A stretch of 64,000 nt of DNA from an uncultured Alphaproteobacteria bacterium (GCA_902625365.1 CACOAX010000002.1:468-64467), one strand, 5' to 3'. Shown: positions 7,395 to 37,546, counted from the first letter of the stretch. A program made the numbers and translations. The notes: a model not told the origin generated them from the letters alone.

Positions 7395-7395
7395 T

Positions 7396-8690: not shown

Positions 8691-8691
8691 T

Positions 8692-12733: not shown

Positions 12734-12785
12734 AATACTTATTCGTTTATACAGTATTTAGCTAAATATTAAATCAAGCATTTTT
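12734..12785. promoter_or_regulatory. 52-bp divergent control region between the uraH-xdh-guaD-puuD and puuE-uraD-alc-allA-ABC operons
   Basis: This is the only non-coding DNA between two divergent operons of one pathway. It contains the perfect 14-bp palindrome TATTTAGCTAAATA at 12755-12768. Confidence 0.4.
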
Positions 12786-15657: not shown

Positions 15658-17155
15658 TACAATATTAAATATAGAGAATATTACAAAATCTTTTCCAAGA
15701 GTAATAGCAAATAAAAAGGTTACCTTTGATATTAAAAAAAATGCAGTTCACGCAATTTTAGGAGAAAATGGAGCAGGGAAATCTACTTTGGTAAAAATTC
15801 TATATGGTCTCTTAGAACCAGATGAAGGAAATATTAAATTAAATAATAGGGATTTTAAAGTTAGTTCACCAGCAGAAGCAAGGAAACAAGGAATAGGAAT
15901 GGTATTTCAGCATTTTTCTTTATTTGATTCTTTATCAGTAAAAGAAAATTTAATTTTAGGAATTGATGAAAAGATGTCTTATTCAGATTTAGAAAATAAG
16001 CTAGAAAATATAAGCTCAAGATACAATCTTCCCTTAGATTTAGATGCTCCAATTACTGCTTTGTCAGCTGGAGAAAAGCAGCGTGTAGAAATAGTAAGAA
16101 TTTTATTACAAGACCCTCAGATACTTATTATGGATGAACCAACTTCAGTCTTAACACCACAAGAAGTTGAAAGTTTGTTTGTAACATTAAATGCACTCGT
16201 CAAAGAAGGTCGTACCATATTATATATCACTCATAAACTTGAAGAAGTAATATCAATATGTGATACAGTTACAATAATGAGAAGTGGTGAAATTATAGAC
16301 ACTTCAAGTACTTCAAATCAAACTGCAAAAACACTTGCAACAAAAATGCTAGGACAAAAACTAGATGATTTAAAAACTAATTACGGGCATATTAAAGATG
16401 AAGTTAACTTTGAAGTAAAAAATATTTCATGTGATTTTAATGATCCATTTTTAACAGACCTTAAAAATATTTCATTTCAAGTTAGAGTGGGTGAAATTTA
16501 TGGCATTGCTGGTGTTGCTGGTAATGGACAATCAGAATTAATGGACATTTTAACAGGGGAAAATATAAATATTAAATCTGGATCAATTACTTTTGATAAT
16601 AAAAAAATTGAAAAGTATGGACCACAAAAAAGAAGAGATTTATCTATTTCGTTTGTTCCCGAGAATAGATTAGGTCATAGTGCAGTTCCTGAGTTAAGTT
16701 TGTCTGAAAATATTCTTTTAAGTCAATTTCCAAAAAATAATTTTATTAAAAATGGTATAATATTGAAAAATAACGTTGATGATTTTGCTAATAATGTAAT
16801 TAATGAATTTAAAGTTATTACTCCTGGGAATGATGCTAAAGCATCAAGTTTGTCTGGAGGAAATTTACAAAAATATGTCATTGGTAGAGAAATTTCATCT
16901 AAGCCAAAAATATTAATTATTTCACATCCAACTTGGGGGATAGATGCCGGCGCTGAACATTCTATAAGAGAGTCTTTGATAGAATTATCGCAAAATGGAA
17001 CTTCTATAATTGTTATTTCTCAGGATTTAGATGAATTGATTGAAATTACTCATAAAATATCTGTTATTTATGATGGTAATTTATCCAAACCTTTTAAAAC
17101 TAGTGAAGTAGAAATTGAAAAATTAGGATTATTGATGGGTGGAAAAAATGAATAA
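15650..17155 (+). CDS. ABC transporter ATP-binding protein (duplicated ATPase, CUT2/BMP nucleoside type)
   Basis: 501 aa with Walker A GENGAGKST, signature LSAGEKQR, and a second signature LSGGNLQK. Confidence 0.92.
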   Translation: MSDTILNIENITKSFPRVIANKKVTFDIKKNAVHAILGENGAGKSTLVKILYGLLEPDEGNIKLNNRDFKVSSPAEARKQGIGMVFQHFSLFDSLSVKENLILGIDEKMSYSDLENKLENISSRYNLPLDLDAPITALSAGEKQRVEIVRILLQDPQILIMDEPTSVLTPQEVESLFVTLNALVKEGRTILYITHKLEEVISICDTVTIMRSGEIIDTSSTSNQTAKTLATKMLGQKLDDLKTNYGHIKDEVNFEVKNISCDFNDPFLTDLKNISFQVRVGEIYGIAGVAGNGQSELMDILTGENINIKSGSITFDNKKIEKYGPQKRRDLSISFVPENRLGHSAVPELSLSENILLSQFPKNNFIKNGIILKNNVDDFANNVINEFKVITPGNDAKASSLSGGNLQKYVIGREISSKPKILIISHPTWGIDAGAEHSIRESLIELSQNGTSIIVISQDLDELIEITHKISVIYDGNLSKPFKTSEVEIEKLGLLMGGKNE

Positions 17156-18221
17156 TTTATTTCCCTCTATAGTTTCTCGCTCACAGAGTTCAGGTCTAAT
17201 GAATTTTTTTATTCCCATAATATCTATTATTTTAACTTTAATTACTGGATCAATTATTTTTGTTCTCCTTGGTTTTGATCCAGTTTATGCATTGTATACG
17301 TTTTTTATTTCACCCATTTCTTCAACCTACGGTATTTCTGAATTATTTGTAAAAGCAACTCCTTTAGCCTTGATTGCAATTGGTCTTTCATATTGTTTTA
17401 AGAATAATATTTATAATATTGGAGCTGAAGGACAACTTACCATGGGTGCAATTTTTGGTGGAGGTATTGGAATATTATTTCACGATACAAATGCTTTCTG
17501 GTTGTTGCCATTAATGATTTTTGCAGGAGCAATTGGAGGAGCATTGTGGGGTTTAATACCTGCTATTTTAAAAACAAAATTTAATACAAATGAAATTTTA
17601 ACAAGCCTAATGATGGTTTATGTTGCTTTATTTATTTTAGATTATTTAGTAGTAGGGCCTTGGAAAGATCCATTTGGGTATAGCTTTCCTAAATCAAGAC
17701 CGTTCAGTGAATCAGGAAGAATGCCTTTATTATTTGATGGTTTAAGGGTGCACTTTGGATTAATTATAACGCTATTTTTAATTTTTGTATCTTGGTTTAT
17801 ATTTTCTAAAACTATTTTTGGCTTTCAATTGAAAGTATCTGGTTACAGTCCTAAAGCTGCTAGATATGCAGGTTTTAATCAAACAACTTTAGTTTTTTTT
17901 GCTTTTGCAATTTGTGGTGCTTTTGCAGGTATTGCAGGTTTAGCTGAAGTATCTGGCCCAATTGGATTATTATATAGAGATATTTCTCCAAATTATGGAT
18001 TTACTGCAATTATTGTCGCTTTCTTAGGTAGACTTCACCCAATTGGTATTATTTTTGCTTCTCTAGTTATCGCTCTTACCTACCTTGGTGCTGAGGACGC
18101 ACAATTGTTTTTACAAATACCTTCAGCAGTAGGTTTTATATTTCAAGGTTTGGTTTTATTTTATTTATTAGGTGCGGAATTACTAATTAACTATAAATTA
18201 ACTTACAAAAAATTATTATGA
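17148..18221 (+). CDS. ABC transporter permease (BMP/nucleoside-type)
   Basis: Polytopic. I prefer the ATG at 17148, an 8-nt overlap with the ATPase stop, over the GTG at 17139. Confidence 0.88.
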   Translation: MNNLFPSIVSRSQSSGLMNFFIPIISIILTLITGSIIFVLLGFDPVYALYTFFISPISSTYGISELFVKATPLALIAIGLSYCFKNNIYNIGAEGQLTMGAIFGGGIGILFHDTNAFWLLPLMIFAGAIGGALWGLIPAILKTKFNTNEILTSLMMVYVALFILDYLVVGPWKDPFGYSFPKSRPFSESGRMPLLFDGLRVHFGLIITLFLIFVSWFIFSKTIFGFQLKVSGYSPKAARYAGFNQTTLVFFAFAICGAFAGIAGLAEVSGPIGLLYRDISPNYGFTAIIVAFLGRLHPIGIIFASLVIALTYLGAEDAQLFLQIPSAVGFIFQGLVLFYLLGAELLINYKLTYKKLL

Positions 18222-19087
18222 ATTTAGATTTAATACTTGGAATTTTACAAATTGTTTTAATTGCAACAACACCTCTTGTTTTTGCTGGAATAGGTGAGTT
18301 AGTTGCAGAAAAATCTGGAGTATTAAATTTAGGTGTAGAAGGAATGATGTTAGTAGGGGCAGTGTCCGCTTTTACTATCTTAGTAATTACAGGAAGTTAT
18401 TTTTTAGCTTTTTTTGTATCTATATTATCTGGAATTATCATGTCTGGTTTATTTGCTTTTCTAGTTCTGTTTTTAATGTCAAATCAAATTGCTACAGGAT
18501 TAGCATTAACTATTTTTGGAATAGGTCTTAGTTCGATGCTTGGCAAACAATATATTGGAACACCAATTGATGGTCTGTCACCATGGTTTTTTGTTATATT
18601 TTCTTTCTTAATTGTTTTTTTGGTTAGTTATTTTTTTTATAAAACTAAAGCCGGTTTGATTTTAAGAGCAGTAGGGGAATCTCATAATTCTGCACATGCA
18701 TTAGGATATAGCGTTATTAAAATAAGATTTTTATCAATTTTATTTGGAGGTTCTATGTGTGCTCTTGCCGGATCATATATTTCAATTTGTTATGCCCCAA
18801 TGTGGCAAGAGGGAATGACAGCTGGACGTGGATGGATAGCGTTAGCTTTAGTTGTTTTTGCAACTTGGAAACCAGAAAGAGTGCTTATTGGAGCTTATAT
18901 ATTTGGAGGTGTTACTATTCTTCAAATGAATCTTCAGGCTTTAGGTTTAAGATTCCCTGGTCAATTTTTCAGCATGGCGCCATATGTTGCAACTATTATA
19001 GTTTTAGTGTTAATTTCTAGTAATAAATTAAGAATAAAACTTAGTGCACCTGCTTCGTTAACTATTCCTTTTTATAAAGGCAGATAA
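18218..19087 (+). CDS. ABC transporter permease (second subunit)
   Basis: 289 aa, polytopic, with an ATGA overlap with the preceding permease. Confidence 0.88.
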   Translation: MNLDLILGILQIVLIATTPLVFAGIGELVAEKSGVLNLGVEGMMLVGAVSAFTILVITGSYFLAFFVSILSGIIMSGLFAFLVLFLMSNQIATGLALTIFGIGLSSMLGKQYIGTPIDGLSPWFFVIFSFLIVFLVSYFFYKTKAGLILRAVGESHNSAHALGYSVIKIRFLSILFGGSMCALAGSYISICYAPMWQEGMTAGRGWIALALVVFATWKPERVLIGAYIFGGVTILQMNLQALGLRFPGQFFSMAPYVATIIVLVLISSNKLRIKLSAPASLTIPFYKGR

Positions 19088-19196
19088 ATAATATCCACTT
19101 TTTTTTTTCTATAATCATATACAATTATTGATCAAATCTATTTGTATATATTAAGTATATCTTTGAGTAATCGTTATATTAGCAGGTGAGGTTAAA

Positions 19197-20264
19197 ATGA
19201 TTAGAACAATAACTTATTTATCAACTTTTCTGGTATTTGCATTTGGCTCAGCATATGCAGACCCTAAAAAAGTTGGATTTATATATATAGGTCCTCCAGG
19301 AGATCACGGTTGGACGTATATGCATGATGTAGGTAGAAAATATATGGAAAGCCAACTTGGCGACTCTATTACTACTACTTATCTTGAAAATATTCCTGAA
19401 AATGCAGATGCAGTGAGAGCAATCCGAAAACTAGCTGATTCAGGACATGATTTAATATTTACTACGTCTTTCAACTATATGGATCAGACACATGAAGTAG
19501 CTAAGGATTTTCCCGATGTAAAATTTGAACATGCTACTGGATATATCCAAGCAGAAAATGTTGCTACTTATTCAGCTAGATTTTATGAAGGCAGAATGAT
19601 TGAAGGTCATATTGCTGGGCATATGACTGAAACCAATACTATTGGTTATATAGCTTCATTCCCTATCCCAGAAGTTGTTAGAGGAATAAATGCATTCTAT
19701 TTAGCAGCATCTAAAGTAAATCCAGATATAAAAATGAAAATTATTTGGGTATTTACTTGGTATGACCCAGGTAAAGAAGCTGATGCAGCAAATACATTAA
19801 TTAATCAAGGAGCTGACATAATTGTACAGCATACAGATACATACGCTCCTTGTCAGGCTGCTCAAAAAGCAGGTGTCTTTGCATTTGGTCAAGCTTCAAA
19901 TCAAGAAGAGTTCTGTCCTGATGCACATTTAACTTCAATTGAAGATATTTGGGGCCCTTATTATGCTGAAAGAGCAAAAGCTGTCGTTGATGGCACTTGG
20001 TCCTCAGGTGATACTTGGGATGGTATGGATAAAGGTATGGTTGTAATGTCACCATATAATACTAAACTTATGCCAGCAAGTCTAATTCAAGAAGCTGTAA
20101 ATATGGAAGTTGGAATTAAAGATGGAACTATCCATCCTTTCACAGGACCAATTTACAATCAAGCTGGTGAGCTTGTAGTTCCTGAAGGTGAAGTAGCGCC
20201 TGATGGAATGTTACTTGGAATGAACTTTTATGTTCAAGGAATTGACGGCGAAGTACCACAATAA
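19197..20264 (+). CDS. BMP-family (PnrA/Med-like) ABC substrate-binding protein, probably for a purine base or nucleoside
   Basis: 355 aa with a signal peptide and KVGFIYIGPPGDHGWTY typical of basic membrane protein family binding proteins. A strong RBS (AGGTGAGG) lies upstream. Confidence 0.9.
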   Translation: MIRTITYLSTFLVFAFGSAYADPKKVGFIYIGPPGDHGWTYMHDVGRKYMESQLGDSITTTYLENIPENADAVRAIRKLADSGHDLIFTTSFNYMDQTHEVAKDFPDVKFEHATGYIQAENVATYSARFYEGRMIEGHIAGHMTETNTIGYIASFPIPEVVRGINAFYLAASKVNPDIKMKIIWVFTWYDPGKEADAANTLINQGADIIVQHTDTYAPCQAAQKAGVFAFGQASNQEEFCPDAHLTSIEDIWGPYYAERAKAVVDGTWSSGDTWDGMDKGMVVMSPYNTKLMPASLIQEAVNMEVGIKDGTIHPFTGPIYNQAGELVVPEGEVAPDGMLLGMNFYVQGIDGEVPQ

Positions 20265-20280
20265 CTAATATTCTTAAAAT

Positions 20281-20310
20281 CCTCTCTCCTTAAAAGAGAG
20301 AGGTTTAATT
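20281..20310 (+). terminator. Intrinsic terminator after the binding-protein gene
   Basis: A perfect 8-bp stem CCTCTCTC (20281-20288) pairs with GAGAGAGG (20296-20303). The loop is 7 nt and a T-rich tail follows. Confidence 0.6.
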
Positions 20311-20331
20311 CTTAATTTCAAAGGAAGATTT

Positions 20332-20835
20332 ATGTCTGATTTACACATTAGTTGGGATGAATATAGAGCTAAAACAGAAGAATTAGCAAAACAAATTCAT
20401 AAAGATGGATGGAACTTTAATCAAGTTGTATGCATTGCAAAAGGAGGAATGAGAGTAGGGGATGTAATGGCAAGAATATTTGATGTCCCTCTAGCAATTC
20501 TTTCTGTTGAATCATATAAAGGTGATGGAGTAAAAAATAAAAGAGGTGCAATTACTTTTTCAAGAGATTTAGCAAAAACAAGTCCTAACATTGGATCAAA
20601 AGTTTTAATAGTAGATGATTTAGCAGACTCAGGAATTACACTAAAAAAAAGTATTGATTGGTTAAATCATACTTATGGTTTTTATATAGATGAACCAATA
20701 AGAACTGGAGTTTTGTTTTATAAATCAGTATCATCATTTAAACCAAATTATTATGTTGATTATTTAGAAGATTCTCCTTGGATACATATGCCTTATGAGG
20801 TTTATGAAACTATGAAACCTGAAGAGCTTGGTTAA
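20332..20835 (+). CDS. Purine phosphoribosyltransferase (Gpt-like)
   Basis: 167 aa with the PRPP loop VLIVDDLADSGITL and an overall layout like xanthine-guanine PRT. Confidence 0.8.
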   Translation: MSDLHISWDEYRAKTEELAKQIHKDGWNFNQVVCIAKGGMRVGDVMARIFDVPLAILSVESYKGDGVKNKRGAITFSRDLAKTSPNIGSKVLIVDDLADSGITLKKSIDWLNHTYGFYIDEPIRTGVLFYKSVSSFKPNYYVDYLEDSPWIHMPYEVYETMKPEELG

Positions 20836-21692: not shown

Positions 21693-22021
21693 TATCTTCT
21701 AATATTTCTGTCAATTAATGCAGCCCATGCATCTATTCCGCCAAGTACATTAACACAATGATTATAACCTTGTGCTTTGAGCCATTTACATACGGCTTGG
21801 CTTCTTGTTCCGGTATGACACATTACAAAAATATTTTTTTTCTTATCCAATTCGGTATATCTTTTAGCTATTTCTGAAAGTTTCATGTGTATTGTACCTT
21901 TAATATGGGCATGATCTCTCTCTGTATCTTCTCTTACATCTATAATTTGAATTTTTTTGTCATCTTGTTTAAGTTCATTTAACTGATGAACTGTTATTTC
22001 ACTACTACTGTAAAGATCCAT
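21689..22021 (-). CDS. Single-domain rhodanese sulfurtransferase
   Basis: 110 aa with the active-site loop CHTGTRS and GGIDAW near the C-terminus. Confidence 0.85.
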   Translation of the reverse strand: MDLYSSSEITVHQLNELKQDDKKIQIIDVREDTERDHAHIKGTIHMKLSEIAKRYTELDKKKNIFVMCHTGTRSQAVCKWLKAQGYNHCVNVLGGIDAWAALIDRNIRRY

Positions 22022-22130
22022 AATATTATCTTATTATAAATACTACTAGATTTCTACTATTTTAAATAAAATTAATTTTTAAAATTAAATTTGTTATTTC
22101 TAAATTTTTAATGTAAGAGCTTTCATCAAT

Positions 22131-22430
22131 ATGTCAAAAAAAATAACTTTTTCAGCTTTTGGTAGAGATTCATATTATCACAGAGACTGGTTCAAAAAAA
22201 ATGGTTTTAAATTTGATAGAAGTTCTAGAAAGTGGACTGTAGAAAATTTACCAATAGATAATGCTGAAGAATTCGCTAGTTATTGTAGAAAATACGGCTT
22301 AACATTTGAGCGATCTGATAGAATGATCACAGAATTTGATTATGCCGACTATCTCTGGGATGGAAGAAGGGATGAATTTATGAAACCTTCCGAAAATATT
22401 GAAATTCCACAACCTAAAAATAAAATCTAA
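22131..22430 (+). CDS. Hypothetical soluble protein (99 aa)
   Basis: The ORF has normal-looking, non-low-complexity composition rich in R, D, E, F and W. I recognise no family, but there is a KNGFKFD...RKWTV element. Confidence 0.55.
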   Translation: MSKKITFSAFGRDSYYHRDWFKKNGFKFDRSSRKWTVENLPIDNAEEFASYCRKYGLTFERSDRMITEFDYADYLWDGRRDEFMKPSENIEIPQPKNKI

Positions 22431-22433
22431 TTT

Positions 22434-23351
22434 TTGTTAAATAAATTATTATCTAATAATTTAATACTTCTTATAATTTTAGCAGCTATTTGGGGATCTT
22501 CTTTTTTTGTTATTAAAATTTGTCTGTCTAGTTTTACTCCTACAAGTATCGCCTCTTTAAGATTAATTATTGCATCTATATTTTTAATTATTTTATATTA
22601 TTCATACAACAATCATCCTAAATTAAGTCTTGATTTAGTTATAATTCTTTCTTTTATTGGAATTACAGGAAATTTTTTACCATTCTATCTGATTAGTTGG
22701 GCTGAACAATATATCCCTTCTTCAACTGCTGGTTTGTTAATGTCAGTTGGTCCCTTAATAACATTACTAATGTCTCATGTTTTAACTTCAGATGATAAGT
22801 TCACTTGGATTAAATTTTTATCAATTATTATAGGCTTTGTAGGTATTTTTTTTATTTTAGATGTAAGTAAATTTAATTTTCAAGATGAAAACTACATAAG
22901 TACTTTAGCTAAAATTTTTGTGATTATAGCAGCATTTGGCTACATGATTTCAAATATTGCAGCTTATAATAAATTAAAAAAATTAAGCTCTATTTCAATT
23001 ACTACTTTTGCTACATTGTTTGGAGCCATAATATCATTACCATTTTTATTCTATGATTTTATTAATTATGAAAATAATATTAATACAATTTCTTTAATTT
23101 CTATTATTTATTTAGGTGTTTTTCCAACAGCTATTGCATTTCATATGCGCTATCATATAGTTAAGCAATCTGGTCCGGTTTTCTTATCTTATGTTGCCTA
23201 TTTAATACCTGTTTTTGCTTTAATATGGGGATTCATATTTCTTTCTGAAAAAATAGTATTCACTTCTGTAGTCGGAATTATTTTAGTTTTTATTGGTCTG
23301 TTTGTGGGTCAAAAAAAATCAATGAGTAAAATATCCGTAAAAAACATATAA
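22434..23351 (+). CDS. DMT superfamily (EamA-type) transporter
   Basis: 305 aa, TTG start, with AAIWGSSFFVIK and 10 TM segments. Confidence 0.85.
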   Translation: MLNKLLSNNLILLIILAAIWGSSFFVIKICLSSFTPTSIASLRLIIASIFLIILYYSYNNHPKLSLDLVIILSFIGITGNFLPFYLISWAEQYIPSSTAGLLMSVGPLITLLMSHVLTSDDKFTWIKFLSIIIGFVGIFFILDVSKFNFQDENYISTLAKIFVIIAAFGYMISNIAAYNKLKKLSSISITTFATLFGAIISLPFLFYDFINYENNINTISLISIIYLGVFPTAIAFHMRYHIVKQSGPVFLSYVAYLIPVFALIWGFIFLSEKIVFTSVVGIILVFIGLFVGQKKSMSKISVKNI

Positions 23352-23449
23352 TACTAATAAAAAAGCAATAAAAATAGACACATTTTTGAAGTTAAAGTAT
23401 TTCATTTATGGTTGAAATTTAATTTTTTATAGTCCAATATACTTTTATT

Positions 23450-24814
23450 ATGAGCGACTCAATTAAATACTTACTTGAAGAAAATAAAGCACCAAAGTTT
23501 TGGTATAATATTAATGCAGACTTACCAAGTCCACCACCACCACCACTACATCCTGGGACTAAACAACCAGCTGGTCCTGACGACTTTGCTCCTTTATTTC
23601 CAATGAGTTTAATTATGCAAGAAGTTTCTACTGAAAGAGAAATAGAAATCCCTGAACCAGTAAGAGAAGTATACAAACAATGGAGACCCTCTCCTTTATT
23701 TAGAGCAAGAAGATTAGAAAAGTTTTTAGATACACCAGCTAAAATTTATTACAAATATGAAGGTGTTAGTCCTACTGGAAGTCACAAACCAAATACTGCA
23801 GTTCCACAAGCATTTTTTAATAAAGAAGAAGGAATTAGTAAAATTTTTACTGAAACGGGCGCAGGTCAGTGGGGAAGTTCATTAGCTTTTGCAGGCCAGA
23901 TCTTTGGTATAGATATAGAAGTTTTCATGGTTAAGGTTAGTTTTGATCATAAACCTTACAGAAAATTAATGATGCAATCCTTTGGCGCTAACTGTCACGC
24001 TAGTCCATCTAATTTAACTGATTTCGGTAAAAAGTTATTATCAGAAAATCCTGATAACCCTGGTAGTTTGGGAATAGCTATATCAGAAGCAATAGAAGCA
24101 ACTGTTAAAAGTGGAGGCAAAGCAAAATACTCACTTGGAAGTGTTTTAGGACACGTTTTAATGCATCAAACTATAAATGGCAATGAAGCTATTATGCAAA
24201 TGGAGATGGCTGGAGATTATCCTGATATAATTGTTGGCTGTACAGGTGGCGGTAGCAATCTTTCTGGATTAATGTTTCCATTTTTAGGACAACAGTTAAG
24301 AGGTGGTCAAAAAATTGATATAATTGGTTGCGAGCCTGCATCATGTCCTTCATTTACGAAGGGTAAGTATGCTTATGATCATGGTGATATGGCAAAAATG
24401 ACTCCATTAATTAAAATGCATACTCTTGGATCTGATTTCTTACCACCAGCAAATCACTCTGGTGGATTAAGATACCATGGCATGTCTTATCATTTAAGTC
24501 ATTTATATGAGTTAGGCCTGATGAGAGCAAAGGCTTATCGTCAAAAAGATTGTTTTGAAGCTGGTTTAACTTTTGCAAAACAAGAAGGAATTATTCCTGC
24601 TCCAGAAGGAAACCATGCAATAAAAGGCGCTATTGATGCAGCTTTAGAATGTAAAGAAAAAGGTGAGTCAAAAACTATTCTCTTTAATTTATGTGGTCAC
24701 GGATATTTTGATATGTCTGCTTATGATGATTATCTAAATGGATCAATGGCTGATGATGTTATTGATGATGATGGAATAGGTAAATCTATCTCTCAAATAC
24801 CAGAAGTAGCGTAA
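23450..24814 (+). CDS. TrpB-like PLP-dependent enzyme (TrpB2 / trpB_rel type)
   Basis: 454 aa with the PLP-lysine motif TGSHKPNTA and the phosphate loop GCTGGGSN. It has the long N-terminal extension typical of TrpB2. Confidence 0.88.
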   Translation: MSDSIKYLLEENKAPKFWYNINADLPSPPPPPLHPGTKQPAGPDDFAPLFPMSLIMQEVSTEREIEIPEPVREVYKQWRPSPLFRARRLEKFLDTPAKIYYKYEGVSPTGSHKPNTAVPQAFFNKEEGISKIFTETGAGQWGSSLAFAGQIFGIDIEVFMVKVSFDHKPYRKLMMQSFGANCHASPSNLTDFGKKLLSENPDNPGSLGIAISEAIEATVKSGGKAKYSLGSVLGHVLMHQTINGNEAIMQMEMAGDYPDIIVGCTGGGSNLSGLMFPFLGQQLRGGQKIDIIGCEPASCPSFTKGKYAYDHGDMAKMTPLIKMHTLGSDFLPPANHSGGLRYHGMSYHLSHLYELGLMRAKAYRQKDCFEAGLTFAKQEGIIPAPEGNHAIKGAIDAALECKEKGESKTILFNLCGHGYFDMSAYDDYLNGSMADDVIDDDGIGKSISQIPEVA

Positions 24815-24860
24815 TTTAAGTTTAATTTTTTTTTTATTTAATTAAAGGTGTTTCTTTATT

Positions 24861-26075
24861 ATGGTTGAAATTAAACCTTTTAAAGGTACACGTCCTTACA
24901 ACGAAGATGCAAAAAATTTAATTGCTCCTTCTACTGATCATTTAAGTATTGAAAATATAGAAATATTTAAAAAAAATAATTATTGGAATTATTTAAAAAT
25001 TTTGAATCCTGTTGGACAATTAAAAGAAGCAGATACTCTCTTAGAAGCTAAATCACATTTTAATGAAATGAAAGAAAATGACGTAATTAAAAAAGATAAA
25101 GAATTATGTTATTACATTTATCAAATTGAATTTAAAGGCCATACTCAACTAGGTTTTTTATCTCTTTCTAAAATATCAGATTTCGTAGATGAAAAAATTA
25201 AAGCACACGAAAAAATATACGAGACAAGGATGAGAGAAAGAGCAGAGCAAATGTTAAATATAAAAACACAAATTGGTCCTATTTATGTGGTATATAAAAA
25301 AAATAATAAGATAAAAGATTTATTATCCTCTATAATATCAAATACTCCAGATTATGATTTTGAAAGTTTTGATAAAACTATTCATAAACTCTGGTGTGTC
25401 TCTGATGAATTTTTCATCAAAAAGCTATCTTCTGTTTTTGTAAATGAGGTAGATAATTTTTATATTGCTGATGGACATCATAGAATGGGTGCAATGAAAA
25501 TTATTGGTGAATTAAATTATAATAAAAATATTTTACAGGAAGATTTTATGATAGCTGCATTTCCAAGTGATGAGGCTAAAATATTTGATTATAATAGAGT
25601 TGTTAAAGATTTAAATGGTTTGAGTGAAGAAAATTTTTTAGACATTCTTTCTGAAAACTTCGAAATAAAAAAAGAAAAAAATCCTTTCAAACCTCAATCT
25701 AATAAACAATTTGGAATGTATCACGAAAAAAAGTGGTACTCATTACATTTTAAAACTGAATTAAAAACTGATAATTTTGTTGATACGCTAGATATAAATA
25801 TTTTAAATAATTTTATTTTCAAAAAACATTTAAATATTTCTGATGTTAATAATGATGAAAGAATAAGATTTATTGCTGGATGTCATGGTTTGCAAGCTTT
25901 AGAAAAAAAAGTTGATGAAAATAATGACAGTGTGGCATTTTCTATCTTCCCATCTTCAATAAGTGATGTTATTACAGTCGCGAATAAAAATTTGACTATG
26001 CCTCCTAAATCAACATGGTTTGATCCAAAACCTTTAGATGGCTTAGTAGTTTATGAGTTTGAAAAAATTATATGA
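24861..26075 (+). CDS. DUF1015-family protein
   Basis: 404 aa. The motif IADGHHR and the overall size match DUF1015 as I recall it. Confidence 0.75.
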   Translation: MVEIKPFKGTRPYNEDAKNLIAPSTDHLSIENIEIFKKNNYWNYLKILNPVGQLKEADTLLEAKSHFNEMKENDVIKKDKELCYYIYQIEFKGHTQLGFLSLSKISDFVDEKIKAHEKIYETRMRERAEQMLNIKTQIGPIYVVYKKNNKIKDLLSSIISNTPDYDFESFDKTIHKLWCVSDEFFIKKLSSVFVNEVDNFYIADGHHRMGAMKIIGELNYNKNILQEDFMIAAFPSDEAKIFDYNRVVKDLNGLSEENFLDILSENFEIKKEKNPFKPQSNKQFGMYHEKKWYSLHFKTELKTDNFVDTLDINILNNFIFKKHLNISDVNNDERIRFIAGCHGLQALEKKVDENNDSVAFSIFPSSISDVITVANKNLTMPPKSTWFDPKPLDGLVVYEFEKII

Positions 26076-27235
26076 ATAAACCTAATAAAAAACCTAACAA
26101 TCCAAACTTTTCAAGTGGACCAACTTCAAAAAGACCAGGCTGGGACATATCAGTGTTGAGTAATGCTTTAACTGGTAGATCTCACAGATCTGTTGAATGT
26201 AAAGCAAGATTAAAAGAAGCAATAGATAAATCTAAAGATATTCTTAAATTACCTGATGATTATTTATTGGGTATCATGCCTGGATCAAATACTGGCGCTT
26301 TAGAAGCGGCTATGTGGTGCCTACTAGGTAAAACGGGAGTCGATATTCTTGCATGGGAAAATTTTGGTAAAGATTGGGTAATCGATGCAATTAGCGAACT
26401 AAAATTAGATAATTTAAATATTCATGAAGAAGATTATGGTAAACTACCTGACCTTAGCAAAGTCAATTTTGATAATGATGTTATTTTTACTTGGAATGGA
26501 ACAACATCTGGTGTCAAAGTTCCTAATGGAGATTGGATACCTGATGATAGAAAAGGCCTAACCATTTGTGATGCTACTTCGGCAATCTTTGGTATGCCTA
26601 TAGATTATAATAAATGTGATGTTATAACTTGGTCTTGGCAAAAAATACTTGGAGGAGAGGCTGCTCATGGAATGATAGCAATTTCTCCACGCGTTGTTGA
26701 AAGATTAGAAAGTTTTACACCTAGTTGGCCAGTGCCAAAATTATTTAGATTAGCTGAAAACCAAAAATTGATAAAAGGTATTTTTGAAGGAAACACAATT
26801 AATACACCTTCAATGATATGTGTTGAAGATATAATTGATTCATTAAATTGGGTTTCTTCTCAAGGAGGATTAAATTCATTAATTTCTAAATCTCAGAATT
26901 CTTTACAAAAAATTAGAGAATGGATTAATAAGAGAGATTGGGTCACCTTTTTATCTGAAATTGAAGATGATAATTATATCTCAAATACTGGAATAACTTT
27001 TAAAATTATTGAAGATTGGTTTACTAATAAAGATGAAAGCAGTCAAAGAGCTGTAATGGTTGATATATGTAAATTACTTTCTGAAAATAATGTTGGATTT
27101 GATTGCAATGGATATCCCAAAGCACCACCTTCTTTTAGAATATGGGCTGGAGGAACTGTTCAAACTTCAGATGTAGAATTAGTTTTACCTTGGATTGATT
27201 GGGCCTATTCAGAGATTAAATCAAAACATGCCTAA
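26072..27235 (+). CDS. serC: Phosphoserine aminotransferase (alphaproteobacterial/methanogen-type SerC)
   Basis: 387 aa with NFSSGP near the N-terminus and SWQKILGGE (PLP lysine region). ATGA overlap with the preceding gene. Confidence 0.85.
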   Translation: MNKPNKKPNNPNFSSGPTSKRPGWDISVLSNALTGRSHRSVECKARLKEAIDKSKDILKLPDDYLLGIMPGSNTGALEAAMWCLLGKTGVDILAWENFGKDWVIDAISELKLDNLNIHEEDYGKLPDLSKVNFDNDVIFTWNGTTSGVKVPNGDWIPDDRKGLTICDATSAIFGMPIDYNKCDVITWSWQKILGGEAAHGMIAISPRVVERLESFTPSWPVPKLFRLAENQKLIKGIFEGNTINTPSMICVEDIIDSLNWVSSQGGLNSLISKSQNSLQKIREWINKRDWVTFLSEIEDDNYISNTGITFKIIEDWFTNKDESSQRAVMVDICKLLSENNVGFDCNGYPKAPPSFRIWAGGTVQTSDVELVLPWIDWAYSEIKSKHA

Positions 27236-28166
27236 AGTACTAATATCAGATTCACTAGATAATATTGCATCTCAAATTTTAATAAAAAATAACATTTCAG
27301 TTGATACAAAAACAAACTTATCTCCTGAAGAATTAAAAAAAATAATTGATAACTATGATGGTTTAATCATTCGTTCTGCAACTAAGGTGCGAAAAGATTT
27401 AATTGACTCTCTTTCAAATTTAAAAATTATAGGTAGGGCAGGAGCAGGAGTAGATAATGTTGATGTGGAAGCTGCTAAAAATAAAAATATTATCGTAATG
27501 AATACCCCAGGAGGAAATACAAATGCTACAGCAGAACACACAATTGGTTTAATTTTTGCATTACAAAGAAAAATTACTGTTGCCAATGAGGCAACTCATA
27601 AGGGTCTTTGGGAAAAAAAGAAATTAAAAGGAAATGAAATTAAAGGCAAGAAAATTGGTATCATAGGTTTTGGCAATGTAGGCAAAAGAGTTGCAGAAAT
27701 ATCTGATGTATTGGGAATGCAGGTTTCAATATTTTCTTCATACTTTGAAACAATTAAGGATAACTTTCCTGAATATAATTCTTGTTCTATCGATGAGATT
27801 ATTAAAGATTCAGATATAATTTCTTTTCACTGTAAACCGAATAAAGATGGTAACCCCATTATGAATAAAAATCATTTATCATTGATGAAAAAAAATTGCA
27901 TAATTATTAATACTGCTAGAGGTAACTTAGTTGATGAAGATGATCTTAAAAATGCTCTAGAAAAAAAAGAAATTAAAGGCGCTGCATTAGATGTTTTTAA
28001 AAATGAGCCTTTAGAAGAAAGTGGGTTTTATAATTTAGATAATATAATTTTAACTCCACATATTGCTGCTTCTACTGATGAAGCACAAATAGTAGTAGCA
28101 GAAATGGTTGCTAATCAGTTTGTTGAATTTTTTAATAATAATAAAATTATAAATTCAGTTACTTAA
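27228..28166 (+). CDS. serA: D-3-phosphoglycerate dehydrogenase, short form without an ACT domain
   Basis: I trimmed to the ATG at 27228 (MPKVLISD). The NAD motif is GIIGFGNVGKRVA and the catalytic region is NTARG...PHIAAST. It has about 312 codons, so there is no regulatory domain. Confidence 0.88.
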   Translation: MPKVLISDSLDNIASQILIKNNISVDTKTNLSPEELKKIIDNYDGLIIRSATKVRKDLIDSLSNLKIIGRAGAGVDNVDVEAAKNKNIIVMNTPGGNTNATAEHTIGLIFALQRKITVANEATHKGLWEKKKLKGNEIKGKKIGIIGFGNVGKRVAEISDVLGMQVSIFSSYFETIKDNFPEYNSCSIDEIIKDSDIISFHCKPNKDGNPIMNKNHLSLMKKNCIIINTARGNLVDEDDLKNALEKKEIKGAALDVFKNEPLEESGFYNLDNIILTPHIAASTDEAQIVVAEMVANQFVEFFNNNKIINSVT

Positions 28167-30018
28167 TAAAAATTTCAGTTAAATTTTCTAAGTAAGCTGA
28201 TGGATTTGAGAGTATGTTACCATCTAATATATTAGCTTGATCTAAAATTAAATTTGAAGCTTTTTTATGGTCAATTTTTGTTAAATTTTGAGATAAATTT
28301 ACAATCATCGGATGGTTTGGATTAATTTCAAGTATCTTTTTTGAAACAGGAGTTTTTTGATTATGCATTTTCATCAGTTTTTCCATATTTATATCCATCC
28401 CTGCTTCTTCAGCAACAAGTAGAATTGGACTTTTTGTTAATCTCTTAGATATAATAACATCAGATATAGTCTCTTTAAGCTCTGTTTTAAGTATGTTAAT
28501 TAAATCATTGATTTTACTATCTATTTTCTTTTTATCTTCGTCTTTCTTACTTGATTTTTCACCAACTTTCGAAACATCAACTTTACCTTTAGTTATTGAT
28601 TTAAATTCTAAATCTTTAAATTTATTTACATTTTGTATCCAAAACTCATCTACTGCATCAACCATAAACAAAACTGGTATCTCTTTATCAGTAAAAACTT
28701 CTAATTGAGGAGAGTTTTTAATATGATCCTTATCAGTATTAGCAAAATAATAAATTTCTTTTTGATCTTTAGCCATTAACTTAATGTATTCTTCAAGAGA
28801 TATTTTTTTATCGTTTAAAGAATTTTCAAACCTTAATAGCGGTAGGATTTTTTCATGATGATCGTTATGTTCGTATAACCCTTCTTTTAAAACAGGACCA
28901 AAATTATTCCAAAATGTCTCAAATTTATCCTTTTCTTTCTTAGCTAAGCTATCAATTTCACTTAAAATTTTATTTGTAATACCTTTTTTAATTTTCGTAA
29001 TAATAGGATTATTTTGAAGCATTTCTCTACTTATATTGAGAGAAATATCTTGTGAGTCGACTACTCCTGGAATAAAGCGTAACCAATTAGGGATTATGTC
29101 TTCACAATCATCAGTGATAAAAACTTTTTGAACATATAATTTTATTTTATTTTTCCTATCAGCATTAAATAAGTCCATAGGTTGATTGGTAGGAAAATAC
29201 ATTAAAGCCTTATAACTAATAACACCCTCAGCGTTATAGTGAATAGTTTTTAAGGGATCATCAAAGTTAAATGAAATATTATTATAAAATTGCTTATAGT
29301 CTTCCTCTTTTATATCTTTTTTATCTTTTAGCCATAATGGACTACCTTCATTTATTTTTTCTTCTTTTTCTTTATCGTCAAGATCCTTAAGATAAATTGG
29401 GAAAGGAATATAATTTGAGTATTTTGTTATAATTGATCTTAAACGAAATGAATCTAAAAATTCATCAGCATCTTTCTTTATATTTAAAGTTATACAAGTT
29501 CCTCTTTTATCTTTTTTAGCATCTTCTATTGTATAATTTTCTTTCCCATTGGAAGACCAAAGATTTGTTTCTTCATTTTCAGCATCTTTAGAAAGAACTT
29601 CAACATTATCCGCAACCATATATGAGGAATAAAAACCAACACCAAACTGTCCAATTGCGGAAATATCATTACCCTTTTTATTTTTCATTGCTTCAATAAA
29701 TTTACTAGTTCCTGATCTCGCTATAGTTCCTAAATTATCGATAAGTTCATTTTTAGACATTCCAATTCCATTATCTTCAATTTCAATAATTTTTTTCTTT
29801 TTTGAAACTCTAATATTTATTTTTAAATTCTTTTCATCTTTAAGAAGATTTTTTTTAGAGAGTGATTGATATCTTAGTTTTTCACAGGCATCTGCAGAAT
29901 TAGATATTAATTCTCTTAAAAATATTTCTCTTTCGCTATAAAGAGAATTAGCAACAAGATCTAAAAGCTTACTGACTTCAGCTTGAAATGTTAAATTTTC
30001 TTTAGTTTTTTCTGCCAT
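28159..30018 (-). CDS. htpG: Molecular chaperone HtpG (Hsp90)
   Basis: 619 aa with LRELISNSADA, IGQFGVGFYS and NISRE motifs. Confidence 0.97.
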   Translation of the reverse strand: MAEKTKENLTFQAEVSKLLDLVANSLYSEREIFLRELISNSADACEKLRYQSLSKKNLLKDEKNLKINIRVSKKKKIIEIEDNGIGMSKNELIDNLGTIARSGTSKFIEAMKNKKGNDISAIGQFGVGFYSSYMVADNVEVLSKDAENEETNLWSSNGKENYTIEDAKKDKRGTCITLNIKKDADEFLDSFRLRSIITKYSNYIPFPIYLKDLDDKEKEEKINEGSPLWLKDKKDIKEEDYKQFYNNISFNFDDPLKTIHYNAEGVISYKALMYFPTNQPMDLFNADRKNKIKLYVQKVFITDDCEDIIPNWLRFIPGVVDSQDISLNISREMLQNNPIITKIKKGITNKILSEIDSLAKKEKDKFETFWNNFGPVLKEGLYEHNDHHEKILPLLRFENSLNDKKISLEEYIKLMAKDQKEIYYFANTDKDHIKNSPQLEVFTDKEIPVLFMVDAVDEFWIQNVNKFKDLEFKSITKGKVDVSKVGEKSSKKDEDKKKIDSKINDLINILKTELKETISDVIISKRLTKSPILLVAEEAGMDINMEKLMKMHNQKTPVSKKILEINPNHPMIVNLSQNLTKIDHKKASNLILDQANILDGNILSNPSAYLENLTEIFIK

Positions 30019-33951: not shown

Positions 33952-34814
33952 TGAAATATTTTTCAACAAATGATTTACCCTTAAACGATGAAATGATTAA
34001 TTTTTGGAATAATAACGGATATTTGGTTATAGAAAATTTCAACACAGATAAAGAATGTGATGAATTAATGCAACGATCATCATATCTTATTGAACATAAT
34101 AATTTTAATAATCAAAAATCTATTTTTGATACAGTCAATCAAGCTCATAATGATGATAATTATTTTTTAGAATCAGGAGATAAAATTCGTTTCTTCTTTG
34201 AAGAAAAAGCTAATTTAAATGATGATAACATAGAAGAAAATAAACATTTTATTGTAAATAAAATTGGTCATGCGTTGCATGACTTAGACAAAGTTTTTTA
34301 TAAATTTTCTCATAAGCAAAAACTTCAAGATATTGCTTTATCACTTGGTTTCTCTAAACCAAAATTACTTCAATCTATGTATATTTTTAAGCAACCAAAA
34401 ATAGGTGGTGAAGTAGTTTGCCATCAAGATTCTACTTTTTTATATACTGAGCCAGAAAGTACTATCGGTTTCTGGTTTGCATTAGAAGACGCAAATAAAA
34501 CAAACGGATGTTTACAGGTTGCAAGTGGAGGTCACAAAGGTCCATTAAGAAAACTTTTTAAAAAAGTAGACGGTAAAATGCAAATGATAGATCTAAATGA
34601 TGAACCATTTCCTGAAACTGATACTTTTGTAGAAGTAAAAAAAGGATCACTTGTTTTATTACATGGTAGACTACCTCATTATTCATGTGAGAACACAAGT
34701 TTAAAATCAAGACATGCTTACACAATTCATGTAATTGATAATAACAACAAATATCCTGAATGGAATTGGTTACAAAGATCTTCAATACCTCTTAAAAGTT
34801 TTATTAATGACTAA
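33951..34814 (+). CDS. Phytanoyl-CoA dioxygenase (PhyH) family Fe(II)/2-oxoglutarate oxygenase
   Basis: 287 aa with the HxD motif CHQDSTF, WFALEDANKTNGCL and a distal His in SRHAYTIH. Confidence 0.8.
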   Translation: MKYFSTNDLPLNDEMINFWNNNGYLVIENFNTDKECDELMQRSSYLIEHNNFNNQKSIFDTVNQAHNDDNYFLESGDKIRFFFEEKANLNDDNIEENKHFIVNKIGHALHDLDKVFYKFSHKQKLQDIALSLGFSKPKLLQSMYIFKQPKIGGEVVCHQDSTFLYTEPESTIGFWFALEDANKTNGCLQVASGGHKGPLRKLFKKVDGKMQMIDLNDEPFPETDTFVEVKKGSLVLLHGRLPHYSCENTSLKSRHAYTIHVIDNNNKYPEWNWLQRSSIPLKSFIND

Positions 34815-35751
34815 AAAAATAATTTTAGATTGTGATCCAGGTCATGATGATGCTGTAGCAATAATGTTGGCTGCTTCTTCTAAAGAGATTGACATACTGG
34901 GTATCACATGTGTTGGAGGAAATAGTGGTTTAAATAATACAGTAAATAACGCTCTTAAGGTTTGTACATTAATTGAAAGAACGGACATCAAAGTTTACTC
35001 AGGTGCAAATAAACCTATTCACTATGAATTATTTACAGCTGAATATGTTCATGGAAAAACCGGATTAGATAAAAAAGGTGATCCTATAATAATAGATACA
35101 AATTATAAACCTCAAGAAAAACATGCAGTTGATTTCATAGTAGAAACTTGTAAATCTTCAACAGAGCAAATTTATTTATGTCCAACAGGACCTCTTACGA
35201 ATATTGCCTTAAGTTTAAAAAAAGATCCGTCTATTAAAGAAAATATAAAAGAAATAGTTTTTATGGGTGGAGCCGCTATGTGCTTAGGAAATACTACACC
35301 TTCAGCTGAATTTAATATTTATGTGGATCCACATGCGGCTAATATTGTTTTAGAATCAGGCATTTCTTTAACAATGATGGGTTTAGATGTTACTCATCAG
35401 GTAAATGTAAATTCAAAAATTATCAAATCAATGAATGAAAATAAAAATAAAAGTTCTAAGTTTTTTGGTGAACTAATGGAATTTTATACAATATTTCATA
35501 AAGAGTTGTACGAAACTGAGGAAACACCTCTGCATGACCCATGTGTCATCGCATATTTATTAGATCCATCTATCTTTAGTGGTAAACAGGTTAATGTCAC
35601 AGTTGAAGAAAATTCTGAATTAACAAGAGGGGAGACTGTTGTTGATTGGCTTGGTGTTACCAAAAGACCAGCAAATTGTTTTGTGATGAATGAAGCTAAT
35701 GATGAAAAATTTTTTCAATTACTTAAAGATAAATTATCTTTGTTACCTTAG
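34807..35751 (+). CDS. Inosine/uridine-preferring nucleoside hydrolase
   Basis: I trimmed to the ATG at 34807, which gives MTKKIILDCDPGHDDAVAI (the DxDxxxDD calcium-binding signature). Confidence 0.9.
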   Translation: MTKKIILDCDPGHDDAVAIMLAASSKEIDILGITCVGGNSGLNNTVNNALKVCTLIERTDIKVYSGANKPIHYELFTAEYVHGKTGLDKKGDPIIIDTNYKPQEKHAVDFIVETCKSSTEQIYLCPTGPLTNIALSLKKDPSIKENIKEIVFMGGAAMCLGNTTPSAEFNIYVDPHAANIVLESGISLTMMGLDVTHQVNVNSKIIKSMNENKNKSSKFFGELMEFYTIFHKELYETEETPLHDPCVIAYLLDPSIFSGKQVNVTVEENSELTRGETVVDWLGVTKRPANCFVMNEANDEKFFQLLKDKLSLLP

Positions 35752-36668
35752 CTATAAAAACTTTTTGCAATCTGTCCAGCTAAATTTGCATTATTAATTA
35801 TTAATGATACATTAGCATTTAGAGTTTCATTTTTTGATTGTTCGTTAATTTCATTTATAAGAAATGGCGTTAATTCTTTTCCACTAATATTATTTCTATC
35901 AGCTTTTATTGTTGCATTATTAATCCATTTTTCAACGTCATTTTTATTAAGCGCCTTTTCTATTGGAACTTTGTTAAATATGAGAATTGATTTTTTATTT
36001 TCTATATTTTTATTGAGTTTTAAAAAAGAAGAAATTTCATGAATTTCATCAAATTTTTTATCAACTTTATTTTCTGTTTCTTCATACCAAAAACCAGGCA
36101 TATAATTTGTTTGATAACCAATTCTTGTAATTCCTAAAGTTTCAAGTAGTTCATTTGTTTTGTTTAAATCTAAAATAGATTTAGCACCACTACAGATTAC
36201 AAAATTTGAATTCTCAGAAAGTGCATATAGATCTGCAGATACATCATTCGTATTTTCAGCATTAAGATGTACACCACCAATTCCCCCTGTTGCAAAAAAT
36301 CTTATTTGAAATTTAGAAGCTATAGAAATTGAACTTGCTACTGTTGTAGCAGCATTTTCTTTATTAAATATTGATAAATTTATATTGTGGTTAGATACTT
36401 TTTGTACATTTTTCTCTTTTGCTAATATTTGAATATCCTCTTGCGATAATCCTATTTTAACCTTACCTCTAATTATTCCTATTGTTGCAGCAATTGCACC
36501 ATTATCTTCAACGGCCTTTATAGACTCGTTTGCGACTTTAATATTTTCTGGATAAGGCAATCCATGACTAATCAATGTGCTTTCTAAAGCTACTATTGGT
36601 TTTTTTCTATTTATTGCCTCCTGAACTTTTTCACTTACATCAAATATTTCTTGCATACTATTGTACAC
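35748..36668 (-). CDS. psuG: Pseudouridine-5'-phosphate glycosidase
   Basis: 306 aa. ALESTLISHGLPYP and FATGGIGGVH are typical of the IndA/PsuG family. Confidence 0.88.
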   Translation of the reverse strand: MYNSMQEIFDVSEKVQEAINRKKPIVALESTLISHGLPYPENIKVANESIKAVEDNGAIAATIGIIRGKVKIGLSQEDIQILAKEKNVQKVSNHNINLSIFNKENAATTVASSISIASKFQIRFFATGGIGGVHLNAENTNDVSADLYALSENSNFVICSGAKSILDLNKTNELLETLGITRIGYQTNYMPGFWYEETENKVDKKFDEIHEISSFLKLNKNIENKKSILIFNKVPIEKALNKNDVEKWINNATIKADRNNISGKELTPFLINEINEQSKNETLNANVSLIINNANLAGQIAKSFYS

Positions 36669-37545: not shown

Positions 37546-37546
37546 T

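Follow-up and report, generated by a model that had tools for sequence, protein, structure and literature searches.

A TrpB2–DUF1015–serC–serA gene cluster conserved in Pelagibacterales and its probable link to O-phosphoserine metabolism

Introduction

Why does a gene for an enzyme resembling tryptophan synthase's beta chain stand in one row with the genes that make phosphoserine? The question is raised by four genes at positions 23450-28166 on the plus strand of a stretch of 64,000 nucleotides from an uncultured Alphaproteobacteria bacterium (GCA_902625365.1, CACOAX010000002.1:468-64467); this whole stretch, which was analysed at its full length, is called here the window. Its listing of open reading frames (ORFs) gives in this order trpB2, a DUF1015 gene, serC and a short serA that lacks an ACT domain. 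An initial annotation of the window had described the four genes as a coupled cluster without serB, and had suggested that the O-phospho-L-serine (OPS) made by SerA and SerC could be fed directly to the TrpB2 enzyme, instead of or in addition to being converted to serine.

The cluster itself is real: the four genes lie on the same strand and two of their junctions overlap, DUF1015/serC by 4 nt (ATGA) and serC/serA by 8 nt, and the third is a short spacer between trpB2 and DUF1015 (Table 1), with a length of 46-47 nt in the 39 species representatives nearest to the window. No terminator-like site is found in any junction of the four-gene cluster. The start of serA is the ATG at 27228 (MPKVLISD...), which is common to the starts of the relatives, and not the TTG at 27195. 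The G+C content is 26-31% across the window, and the cluster is compositionally ordinary. We consider it probable, with a confidence that is somewhat above even, that this cluster is a phosphoserine-centred operon of Pelagibacterales, in which a serine kinase/phosphotransferase is paired with a TrpB2 that uses OPS.

Conservation of the gene order

Synteny was analysed in the best 80 loci, each from a different GTDB species representative, which come from Pelagibacterales genomes obtained from single cells or by metagenome assembly. The nearest proteins carry the names Pelagibacteraceae or Candidatus Pelagibacter, and GORG 'AG-' single amplified genomes (SAGs) and MarineAlpha5 bins make up the relatives with 85-100% TrpB2 identity. 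Another group, whose TrpB2 identity is about 70%, contains genomes named 'Candidatus Pelagibacter sp.' as well as the SAG AAA288-N07 of subclade Ic; it stands apart from the group to which the window belongs.

The order trpB2-DUF1015-serC-serA is colinear in 65 of the 80 loci, which are 65 of the 68 that can be evaluated, so the gene order described in the initial annotation is conserved in relatives, and the four-gene arrangement is found far beyond chance. One locus (L062) has the TrpB2-DUF1015 pair followed by an inverted serC-serA block, and two (L070 and L071) have the pair without serC-serA downstream. The contig ends after the pair in three loci and directly after trpB2 in five, and the remaining four (L047, L052, L055 and L057) have TrpB2 without a full DUF1015. 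Of the 75 GTDB loci that can be evaluated, 71 thus have TrpB2 and DUF1015 side by side, and the same holds for all six extra loci.

Loci that have the pair and no serC or serA downstream are L070, with about 1.8 kb of downstream sequence available, and L071, L081 and L082, with about 6-7 kb; L084 and L086 also have the pair without serC/serA, within shorter contigs. A search with the short DUF1015 protein of L071 retrieves a large group of forms of 361-375 amino acids (aa). In every context retrieved for this group trpB2 is located immediately 5' of the DUF1015 gene, 6-9 nt away, the next genes encode asparaginase-II, MtnA, PhyH, MTAP or GFA, and neither serC nor serA is present in the available downstream DNA. 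The locus L066, which has serC-serA, and L071, which does not, share the same downstream genes, and their TrpB2 proteins are 90% identical, their MtnA proteins 88% and their DUF1015 proteins 35%. The TrpB2-DUF1015 pair is therefore the conserved core of the cluster and its tightest link, because it is kept 6-9 nt apart without serC-serA nearby and is unbroken in the locus with an inverted serC-serA block. The serC-serA genes are a movable addition. No TrpB2-DUF1015 fusion protein is found among the 150 best representatives.

The proteins of the cluster are conserved to different degrees. TrpB2 is always the most conserved, above HtpG, the product of the gene that follows the cluster, and DUF1015 is always the least conserved. 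Between the window and L053, for example, identities are 87% for TrpB2, 67% for HtpG, 61% for SerC, 52% for SerA and 45% for DUF1015.

Some single loci have particular features. In L055 and L057, which are labelled Pelagibacterales, a TrpB2 with 85% identity (7944-9365 in both loci) is located between genes of secretion/pilus type and the genes trmH-tuf-nusG-rplK-rplA. In L052 (AG-464-B02_NODE_5, labelled as an uncultured gamma proteobacterium), a TrpB2 with 87% identity (8001-9365) stands alone between lpxK-kdsB-folD and purK-purE-bioH-bioF-thiG, a context that looks gammaproteobacterial. This suggests that a SAR11-type trpB2 was transferred horizontally or that the SAG is mis-binned or chimeric. 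L047 was rejected as a true case of TrpB2 without DUF1015, as its positions 3963-5045 contain an N-terminal fragment of DUF1015 joined to the inverted upstream genes of the window, and it is probably a SAG chimera. In L085 (SAG-MED46), the TrpB2 gene (5630-6989) has an apparent frameshift near residue 402.

TrpB2 and its leaving-group position

The protein encoded by the first gene was already classed as TrpB2 in the initial annotation, and the model scores agree with this class. It reaches 704 bits with the NCBIfam model NF009057 (cutoff 366) and 610 bits with TIGR01415 (trpB_rel, cutoff 519), and only 133 bits with the canonical trpB model TIGR00263, which is below the cutoff of 392. Its nearest sequence matches in the PDB are the Sulfolobus TrpB2 chains 6hul_B (459 bits) and 4qys_B (389 bits), while any TrpB1 gives about 117 bits. 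The SAR11 TrpB2 is roughly as similar to the Sulfolobus TrpB2 enzymes as these are to each other.

The catalytic residues are kept: K113 aligns with K82 and E135 with E104 of PfTrpB, and the GGGSN motif is present at positions 266-270. From the roles of these residues in TrpB1 we take K113 to be the lysine that forms the Schiff base with pyridoxal 5'-phosphate (PLP), E135 to be the catalytic glutamate that activates indole, and GGGSN to be the loop that binds the phosphate of PLP. The protein has the TrpB2 signature GAGQWG in place of GAGQHG. Arg341, in the sequence GGLRYHG, occupies the position of the aspartate of the TrpB1 motif GLDYPG, and the same arginine is found in the three solved Sulfolobus TrpB2 chains. 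The aspartate of TrpB1 (D300 of the P. furiosus enzyme, D305 of that of Salmonella) contacts the hydroxyl group of serine. An arginine at this leaving-group position would favour OPS over serine as the donor.

There is also an insertion of five residues after the position of D242 of PfTrpB, and the loop has four residues more than in 6hul_B. A loop insertion of this kind is exclusive to the TrpB2 forms that are encoded outside trp operons and do not bind TrpA, and it is absent from TrpB1 and TrpB2_i (Merkl 2007, PMC1854888). Together with the lack of any trp gene among the other ORFs of at least 150 aa in the window, it places the SAR11 protein in the putative stand-alone type (TrpB2_o/_a), a call made from alignment and context.

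TrpB2 enzymes are reported as OPS-dependent tryptophan synthases by Busch et al. 2014, as cited in PMC12727527; the initial annotation had referred to such a report. According to the same source, all characterised TrpB2 enzymes make tryptophan. Tests of TrpB2 enzymes for serine-deaminase activity found it to be poor (Merkl 2007, PMC1854888). By Arg341 and by its gene context in phosphoserine metabolism, the SAR11 TrpB2 would prefer OPS over L-serine, and indole would be its nucleophile.

DUF1015 and its probable role in the last step of serine synthesis

The second protein matches the Pfam model PF06245 with 229 bits (E 8.6e-68) over model positions 1-323 of 325, and it has no match to an NCBIfam model. 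The PF06245 family comprises 6,452 representative clusters, and the protein of the window aligns end to end with members of about 400-420 aa. A sequence search of the PDB gives no match at E<=10 and no detectable similarity to the sequences of SbnI or SerK. The structure was predicted with AlphaFold2 (AF2) from an alignment of 34 sequences, which gives a model with pLDDT 88 and pTM 0.87. Foldseek finds nine significant matches for this model in the PDB, which are SbnI (6nr6, 5uje, 5ujd), SerK (5x0b, 5x0e, 5x0g, 5x0j, 5x0k) and the Pyrococcus homologue 1vk1, with E 2e-9 to 3e-7, probability 1.00 and target-normalised TM scores of 0.50-0.63; the next match has E 1e-2. DUF1015 is thus predicted to have the fold of the serine kinases SbnI and SerK.

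The short form of DUF1015 differs from the long one by seven small deletions, of which at least two fall in low-confidence loops of the model, and it keeps every core motif. Residues that are invariant in the long and the short SAR11 forms include His116, Glu117, Arg123, Arg127, the DGHHR motif at 204-208, the DYN motif at 243-245 and Lys383. The DGHHR motif resembles the nucleotide-binding motif of ParB/sulfiredoxin type. In L088 (4861-7227), which is from an unrelated chromosome of 1.36 Mb, the DUF1015 gene is located directly after a DAHP synthase gene and before thiL-pgpA; this is a single case. DAHP synthase catalyses the first step of the synthesis of aromatic amino acids.

DUF1015 was reportedly proposed by Hofmann in 2018 as a substitute for phosphoserine phosphatase in C. 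difficile. A clostridial DUF1015 protein complements an E. coli serB::kan mutant, and members of the family, which are typically encoded with serA/serC where the genome lacks serB, are probably serine kinases and were named SerBK (GapMind 2026 preprint, 10.1101/2024.10.14.618325). The same preprint likens the predicted fold of SerBK to the serine kinase SbnI, and reports that a Bacteroides homologue is required for the use of L-serine as nitrogen source. It considers the kinase direction to be thermodynamically favoured, leaves the direction in vivo open, and gives a catabolic route through the kinase, SerC and SerA that has been proposed for Bacteroides and Thermococcus.

Membership in a family that replaces SerB and the SbnI/SerK-like predicted fold lead to the conclusion that serine synthesis is probably complete and not bypassed, so that the operon probably encodes the whole serine route, with DUF1015 in charge of the last step. 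No HAD-type serB, trpA, glyA or second PALP enzyme is found among the ORFs of at least 150 aa in the 64 kb of the window. The absence of serB noted in the initial annotation stands for the HAD-type gene among these ORFs, and it probably fails for the function, since DUF1015 would replace SerB.

SerC and SerA

SerC is assigned at equivalog level to the phosphoserine transaminases, with 586 bits for NF002841 (cutoff 477) and 522 bits for TIGR01365 (cutoff 448), and all its PDB matches are phosphoserine aminotransferases. In SerA, Pfam detects only the domains 2-Hacid_dh and 2-Hacid_dh_C and neither an ACT nor an ASB domain. Among the NCBIfam models it fits that of phosphoglycerate dehydrogenase (PGDH), TIGR01327, best, with 323 bits over positions 1-308 of 525; the score falls short of the cutoff of 454 bits since the protein lacks the part that corresponds to the regulatory half of the model, and the glyoxylate reductase model gives 207 bits. 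PGDH enzymes account for all of its top 11 PDB matches, among them 1wwk and 2ekl, which belong to the archaeal forms of 307-313 aa. SerA is thus a putative D-3-phosphoglycerate dehydrogenase, which the overlap of its gene with serC fits, and it is of the short form without ACT domain, as had been stated in the initial annotation.

The presence of serA-serC in a SAR11-like genome, which had been regarded there as a finding worth confirming, is not new, as the literature describes these genes in subclade IIIa as well as in some genomes of subclades I/II and LD12 (PMC10030771, PMC3448164). SAR11 lineages of serABC type are reported, partly by culture, as glycine/serine prototrophs (PMC10030771), and SAR11 is known for glycine/serine uptake. 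A recent survey rated the serA/serB/serC pathway as 'absent or incomplete' for 129 out of 135 genomes of Pelagibacter.

Transcription of the cluster

About 40% of the sampled sequence words of the cluster are contained in seawater metatranscriptomes. The trpB2/DUF1015 junction is crossed by metatranscriptome contigs in two runs, X1 record 4 (24521-24991) and X2 record 19 (24572-25114), and other contigs span the upstream leader (X2 record 17) and the serC/serA overlap. Such contigs are without strand information, and some DNA could be among them; they support co-transcription of the four genes and do not prove it. The word depth of the contigs over serC (25984-27201) is about 5-10 times that of trpB2, DUF1015 or serA in four metatranscriptomes, contig depth being a poor gauge of expression; possible reasons are a promoter inside the cluster, unequal stability of the mRNA along it, or cross-mapping of sequences that stem from related lineages.

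Phosphoserine as the probable link between the four genes

OPS would be the simplest chemistry that joins all four genes. In the mechanism proposed here, the short SerA, which would not be feedback-regulated, and SerC convert 3-phosphoglycerate to OPS, and DUF1015, as a SerK/SbnI-like member of the SerBK family, would interconvert OPS and L-serine and stand in for a HAD-type SerB. The stand-alone TrpB2 would form tryptophan from indole and OPS, not serine, with phosphate as the leaving group. The ancestral tight pair would consist of the user of OPS and the interconverter of OPS and serine, to which serC-serA would have been added as a de novo source of OPS. Where serC-serA is missing, DUF1015 would run as a kinase that makes OPS from serine and ATP or ADP and feeds it to TrpB2. 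The analysis itself gives the gene identities, the modelled fold of DUF1015, the conserved order, transcription across the trpB2/DUF1015 junction and the exchange of Asp for Arg in TrpB2; all catalytic activities in this scheme, the preference of this TrpB2 for OPS, the use of indole and the direction of the flux through DUF1015 are predicted.

An adjacent consumer of OPS would explain the purpose of the favoured kinase direction of SerBK, which the preprint left open. The idea of the initial annotation that phosphoserine feeds TrpB2 is in this respect supported and made sharper by the TrpB2-DUF1015 pairing and by Arg341, and its other half, a bypass of serine synthesis, is probably not correct. 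A tentative extension, which we find rather doubtful, is that the TrpB2-DUF1015 pair is an autonomous module across SAR11, in which serine is phosphorylated and the phosphate is displaced by indole. This would be an energy-driven and effectively irreversible tryptophan synthesis or indole salvage, kept even in glycine/serine auxotrophs that lack serA/serC.

Several findings weigh against a phosphoserine-centred operon. DUF1015 is the fastest-evolving protein of the cluster, with 35-37% identity between lineages whose TrpB2 proteins are 90% identical, and this could reflect relaxed constraint and not a key role; the protein of the window is also only about 30-37% identical to typical members of its family. 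TrpB2 is found without DUF1015 in L052, L055 and L057. Outside Pelagibacterales, TrpB2 is absent as a neighbour of DUF1015 in four informative loci (a fifth contig is too short), and therefore the coupling of the two is not general; the contexts there are serC-serA-DUF1015 (L087) or unrelated neighbours. The strain HTCC1062 has only one trpB, a TrpB1-like gene in a trpF-trpB-trpA operon (Kagan 2008, PMC2395257), and among cluster-member names and supplementary tables only 'Tryptophan synthase beta chain 1, SAR11_0488' turned up for it, therefore the TrpB2-DUF1015 pair may be absent from this strain. A His_Phos_1 protein of 187 aa (46138-46701), which has about 50 bits and is equally weak against the CobC, archaeal dPGM and PspA models, is a candidate phosphatase that lies some 18 kb away from the operon and matches none of the three well enough to be assigned. 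A HAD-type SerB, or serC/serA, might also lie elsewhere in this genome or in those that have the pair only. The OPS preference of the SAR11 TrpB2, finally, draws on a single published report, and the role given here to Arg341 is our own proposal.

The cluster might instead be an ordinary serine operon, in which serA, serC and DUF1015 (as SerB) make serine and TrpB2 is a passenger that uses L-serine, takes nothing from the pool of phosphoserine, and is adjacent because serine, the end product, is its substrate or by inherited order. It would agree with the preprint, in which DUF1015 replaces SerB and often occurs with serA/serC without any TrpB (10.1101/2024.10.14.618325), with L087 and the other informative loci outside Pelagibacterales, and with the fact that inheritance alone can maintain gene order within one order. 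We nevertheless regard it as unlikely, because TrpB2 and DUF1015 lie within 6-9 nt of each other in loci without serC-serA nearby and remain together in L062 despite the inversion, SAR11 gene order is otherwise reported to be poorly conserved between species, and the change from Asp to Arg at the leaving-group position is joined by the reported OPS dependence of TrpB2 enzymes.

A catabolic use of the same genes is less probable still. Imported serine, or glycine by way of GlyA, would be phosphorylated by DUF1015, and SerC and SerA would run in reverse to 3-phosphoglycerate and gluconeogenesis, with TrpB2 as a side branch or as a beta-eliminase that converts OPS to pyruvate, ammonia and phosphate. 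The nitrogen phenotype of the Bacteroides homologue, the route proposed there and in Thermococcus, the favoured kinase direction (10.1101/2024.10.14.618325) and the uptake of glycine and serine by SAR11 would suit such a role, but the reported prototrophy of SAR11 of serABC type (PMC10030771) fits biosynthesis, the tested TrpB2 enzymes are poor serine deaminases (PMC1854888), and the glutamate by which TrpB1 activates indole is retained in the SAR11 protein. It is very improbable that TrpB2 joins the aminoacrylate derived from OPS to another nucleophile, such as sulfide or a thiol, to make cysteine or S-alkylcysteine, which would be in keeping with the need of SAR11 for reduced sulfur. Serine kinases of the same fold do feed OPS to PLP enzymes other than tryptophan synthase (SbnI to SbnA, and SerK in cysteine synthesis); a conservation of TrpB2 above that of HtpG suggests a central role, and in a streamlined genome a second tryptophan synthase looks redundant given the trpF-trpB-trpA operon of HTCC1062 (PMC2395257). 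Against this stand a score far above the TrpB2 equivalog cutoff, the retained Glu135, the similarity to Sulfolobus TrpB2, the tryptophan made by every characterised TrpB2 enzyme (PMC12727527), and neighbouring genes that indicate no sulfur chemistry.

Comparison with known systems

The SAR11 protein is like the known TrpB2 enzymes, with structures 4qys, 6hte and 6hul, in its hidden Markov model membership, the catalytic lysine and glutamate, the GAGQWG signature, the arginine in place of aspartate, the loop insertion and its location outside a trp operon. It differs from them in its neighbourhood: a survey of trpB2 genes found no conserved neighbourhood beyond trp operons (Merkl 2007, PMC1854888), whereas trpB2 is here the first gene of a row with DUF1015-serC-serA. 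With the SerBK family the second gene shares the full-length PF06245 match, the location beside serC and serA, the lack of a HAD-type SerB nearby and the SbnI/SerK-like predicted fold. Unlike in the described members, the order DUF1015-serC-serA is preceded in SAR11 by TrpB2, and a trimmed form of 361-375 aa pairs with TrpB2 where serC/serA is not nearby; the preprint mentions neither TrpB nor SAR11.

In staphyloferrin B synthesis SbnI feeds SbnA, and the SerK of Thermococcus feeds OPS-dependent cysteine synthesis. The SAR11 pair resembles these systems in having a gene of the kinase fold adjoining a gene for a fold-type-II PLP enzyme of beta-replacement, whose class is reported to use OPS, and by analogy a phosphate ester of serine would be made and its phosphate displaced. 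The differences are that the SAR11 DUF1015 is about 160 residues longer than SbnI and SerK and has no detectable similarity to them in sequence, and that the PLP partner is TrpB2 and not an enzyme of CysK/SbnA type, so that the product would be tryptophan.

The serACB operon of SAR11 subclade IIIa (HIMB114 and LSUCC isolates) also has serA and serC clustered, and de novo synthesis of serine and glycine is expected from it (PMC10030771). It is described with a canonical serB, while the window has no HAD-type serB among the ORFs of at least 150 aa in its 64 kb, and DUF1015 and TrpB2 are in the operon. The presence of serA/serC in SAR11, DUF1015 as a substitute for SerB (in a preprint) and the OPS dependence of TrpB2 are thus already published, and the conserved neighbourhood TrpB2-DUF1015(-serC-serA) appears to be undescribed in the literature.

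If the pairing of a serine kinase/phosphotransferase with an OPS-using TrpB2 is correct, TrpB2, which has been characterised so far by its biochemistry only (high affinity for indole and preference for OPS), gains a physiological context in a very abundant ocean organism. If DUF1015 substitutes SerB, lineages with DUF1015-serC-serA are predicted to be glycine/serine prototrophs, which alters models of the nutrient dependence of SAR11, and the serine pathway of these lineages would have been scored as 'incomplete' only because SerB was sought in the wrong family. If the pair is an autonomous module, DUF1015 would act in vivo as a kinase. SAR11 genomes that have the pair only and those that have the pair plus serC-serA are natural variants for the question of whether SerBK acts as a kinase or as a phosphatase.

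Organization of the locus and other genes of the window

The features of the locus are collected in Table 1. The leader upstream of trpB2 contains a pattern TTGAxxTTT ... CAATAT, which is present in closer relatives only. No Rfam family was found in the leader at the gathering threshold, which was applied across the window, and a search at E<=1 over 22000-28500 gave one chance match to a snoRNA. A regulatory RNA 5' of trpB2 was rejected on the basis of the lack of an Rfam match and the conservation of the leader in close relatives only. The EamA gene precedes trpB2 in 55 of the 80 loci. These 55 are all from the lineage of the window (TrpB2 at least 84% identical), and in the group at 70% identity the gene is absent upstream.

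Table 1. Coordinates of the four-gene cluster and of its flanking features in the window
Feature	Coordinates	Strand	Description
EamA-family (DMT) transporter	22434..23351	+	PF00892, two repeats; upstream flank
Leader	23352..23449	+	98 nt that separate the EamA gene from trpB2; may hold a promoter of its own, weak evidence
trpB2	23450..24814	+	454 aa; TrpB2-class PLP enzyme of beta-replacement, putative stand-alone type
Spacer trpB2/DUF1015	24815..24860	+	46 nt; Shine-Dalgarno-like AGGTG 5' of ATG, without terminator
DUF1015 ('SerBK' family)	24861..26075	+	404 aa; predicted free-serine kinase / phosphoserine phosphotransferase
serC, serC_2 type	26072..27235	+	387 aa; phosphoserine transaminase
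serA, short	27228..28166	+	312 aa; putative D-3-phosphoglycerate dehydrogenase without ACT/ASB regulatory domains
htpG (Hsp90)	28159..30018	-	PF00183, 398 bits; convergent, the 3' ends of htpG and serA share 8 nt, closing the operon

The window holds four genes of EamA-family (DMT) transporters in its 64 kb, at 4254-5147, 22434-23351, 53108-54001 and 55644-56585. A complete cluster for the catabolism of purines to glyoxylate is present at 5952-20835. It encodes a membrane urate oxidase (Urate_ox_N), a deaminase, XdhC, the large and small subunits of xanthine dehydrogenase, a protein of polysaccharide-deacetylase type that is possibly an allantoinase, OHCU decarboxylase, allantoicase and ureidoglycolate lyase, and it is followed by a nucleoside ABC transporter of Bmp type and a phosphoribosyltransferase. 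By these assignments the cluster would yield glyoxylate and urea in the end, a point of relevance to the glycine supply of SAR11. At 34735-37545 there are a nucleoside hydrolase gene (+) and then genes for a pseudouridine glycosidase (Indigoidine_A) and a PfkB kinase (-), which, together with the purine cluster, point to scavenging of nucleosides.

The ORF at 37526-40576 encodes a fusion protein of 1016 aa that is formed by a phosphotransferase (APH), a peptidase M23 and a class-III aminotransferase; it matches NF004799 ('hypothetical protein') with 1013 bits, just below the cutoff. The genes at 42370-45367 encode a C-C lyase of HpcH/CitE type, which matches the RipC, CitE and malyl-CoA lyase models, all under the cutoff, followed by a beta/alpha pair of an ATP-grasp CoA ligase, and may form a malyl-CoA or glyoxylate-assimilation module.

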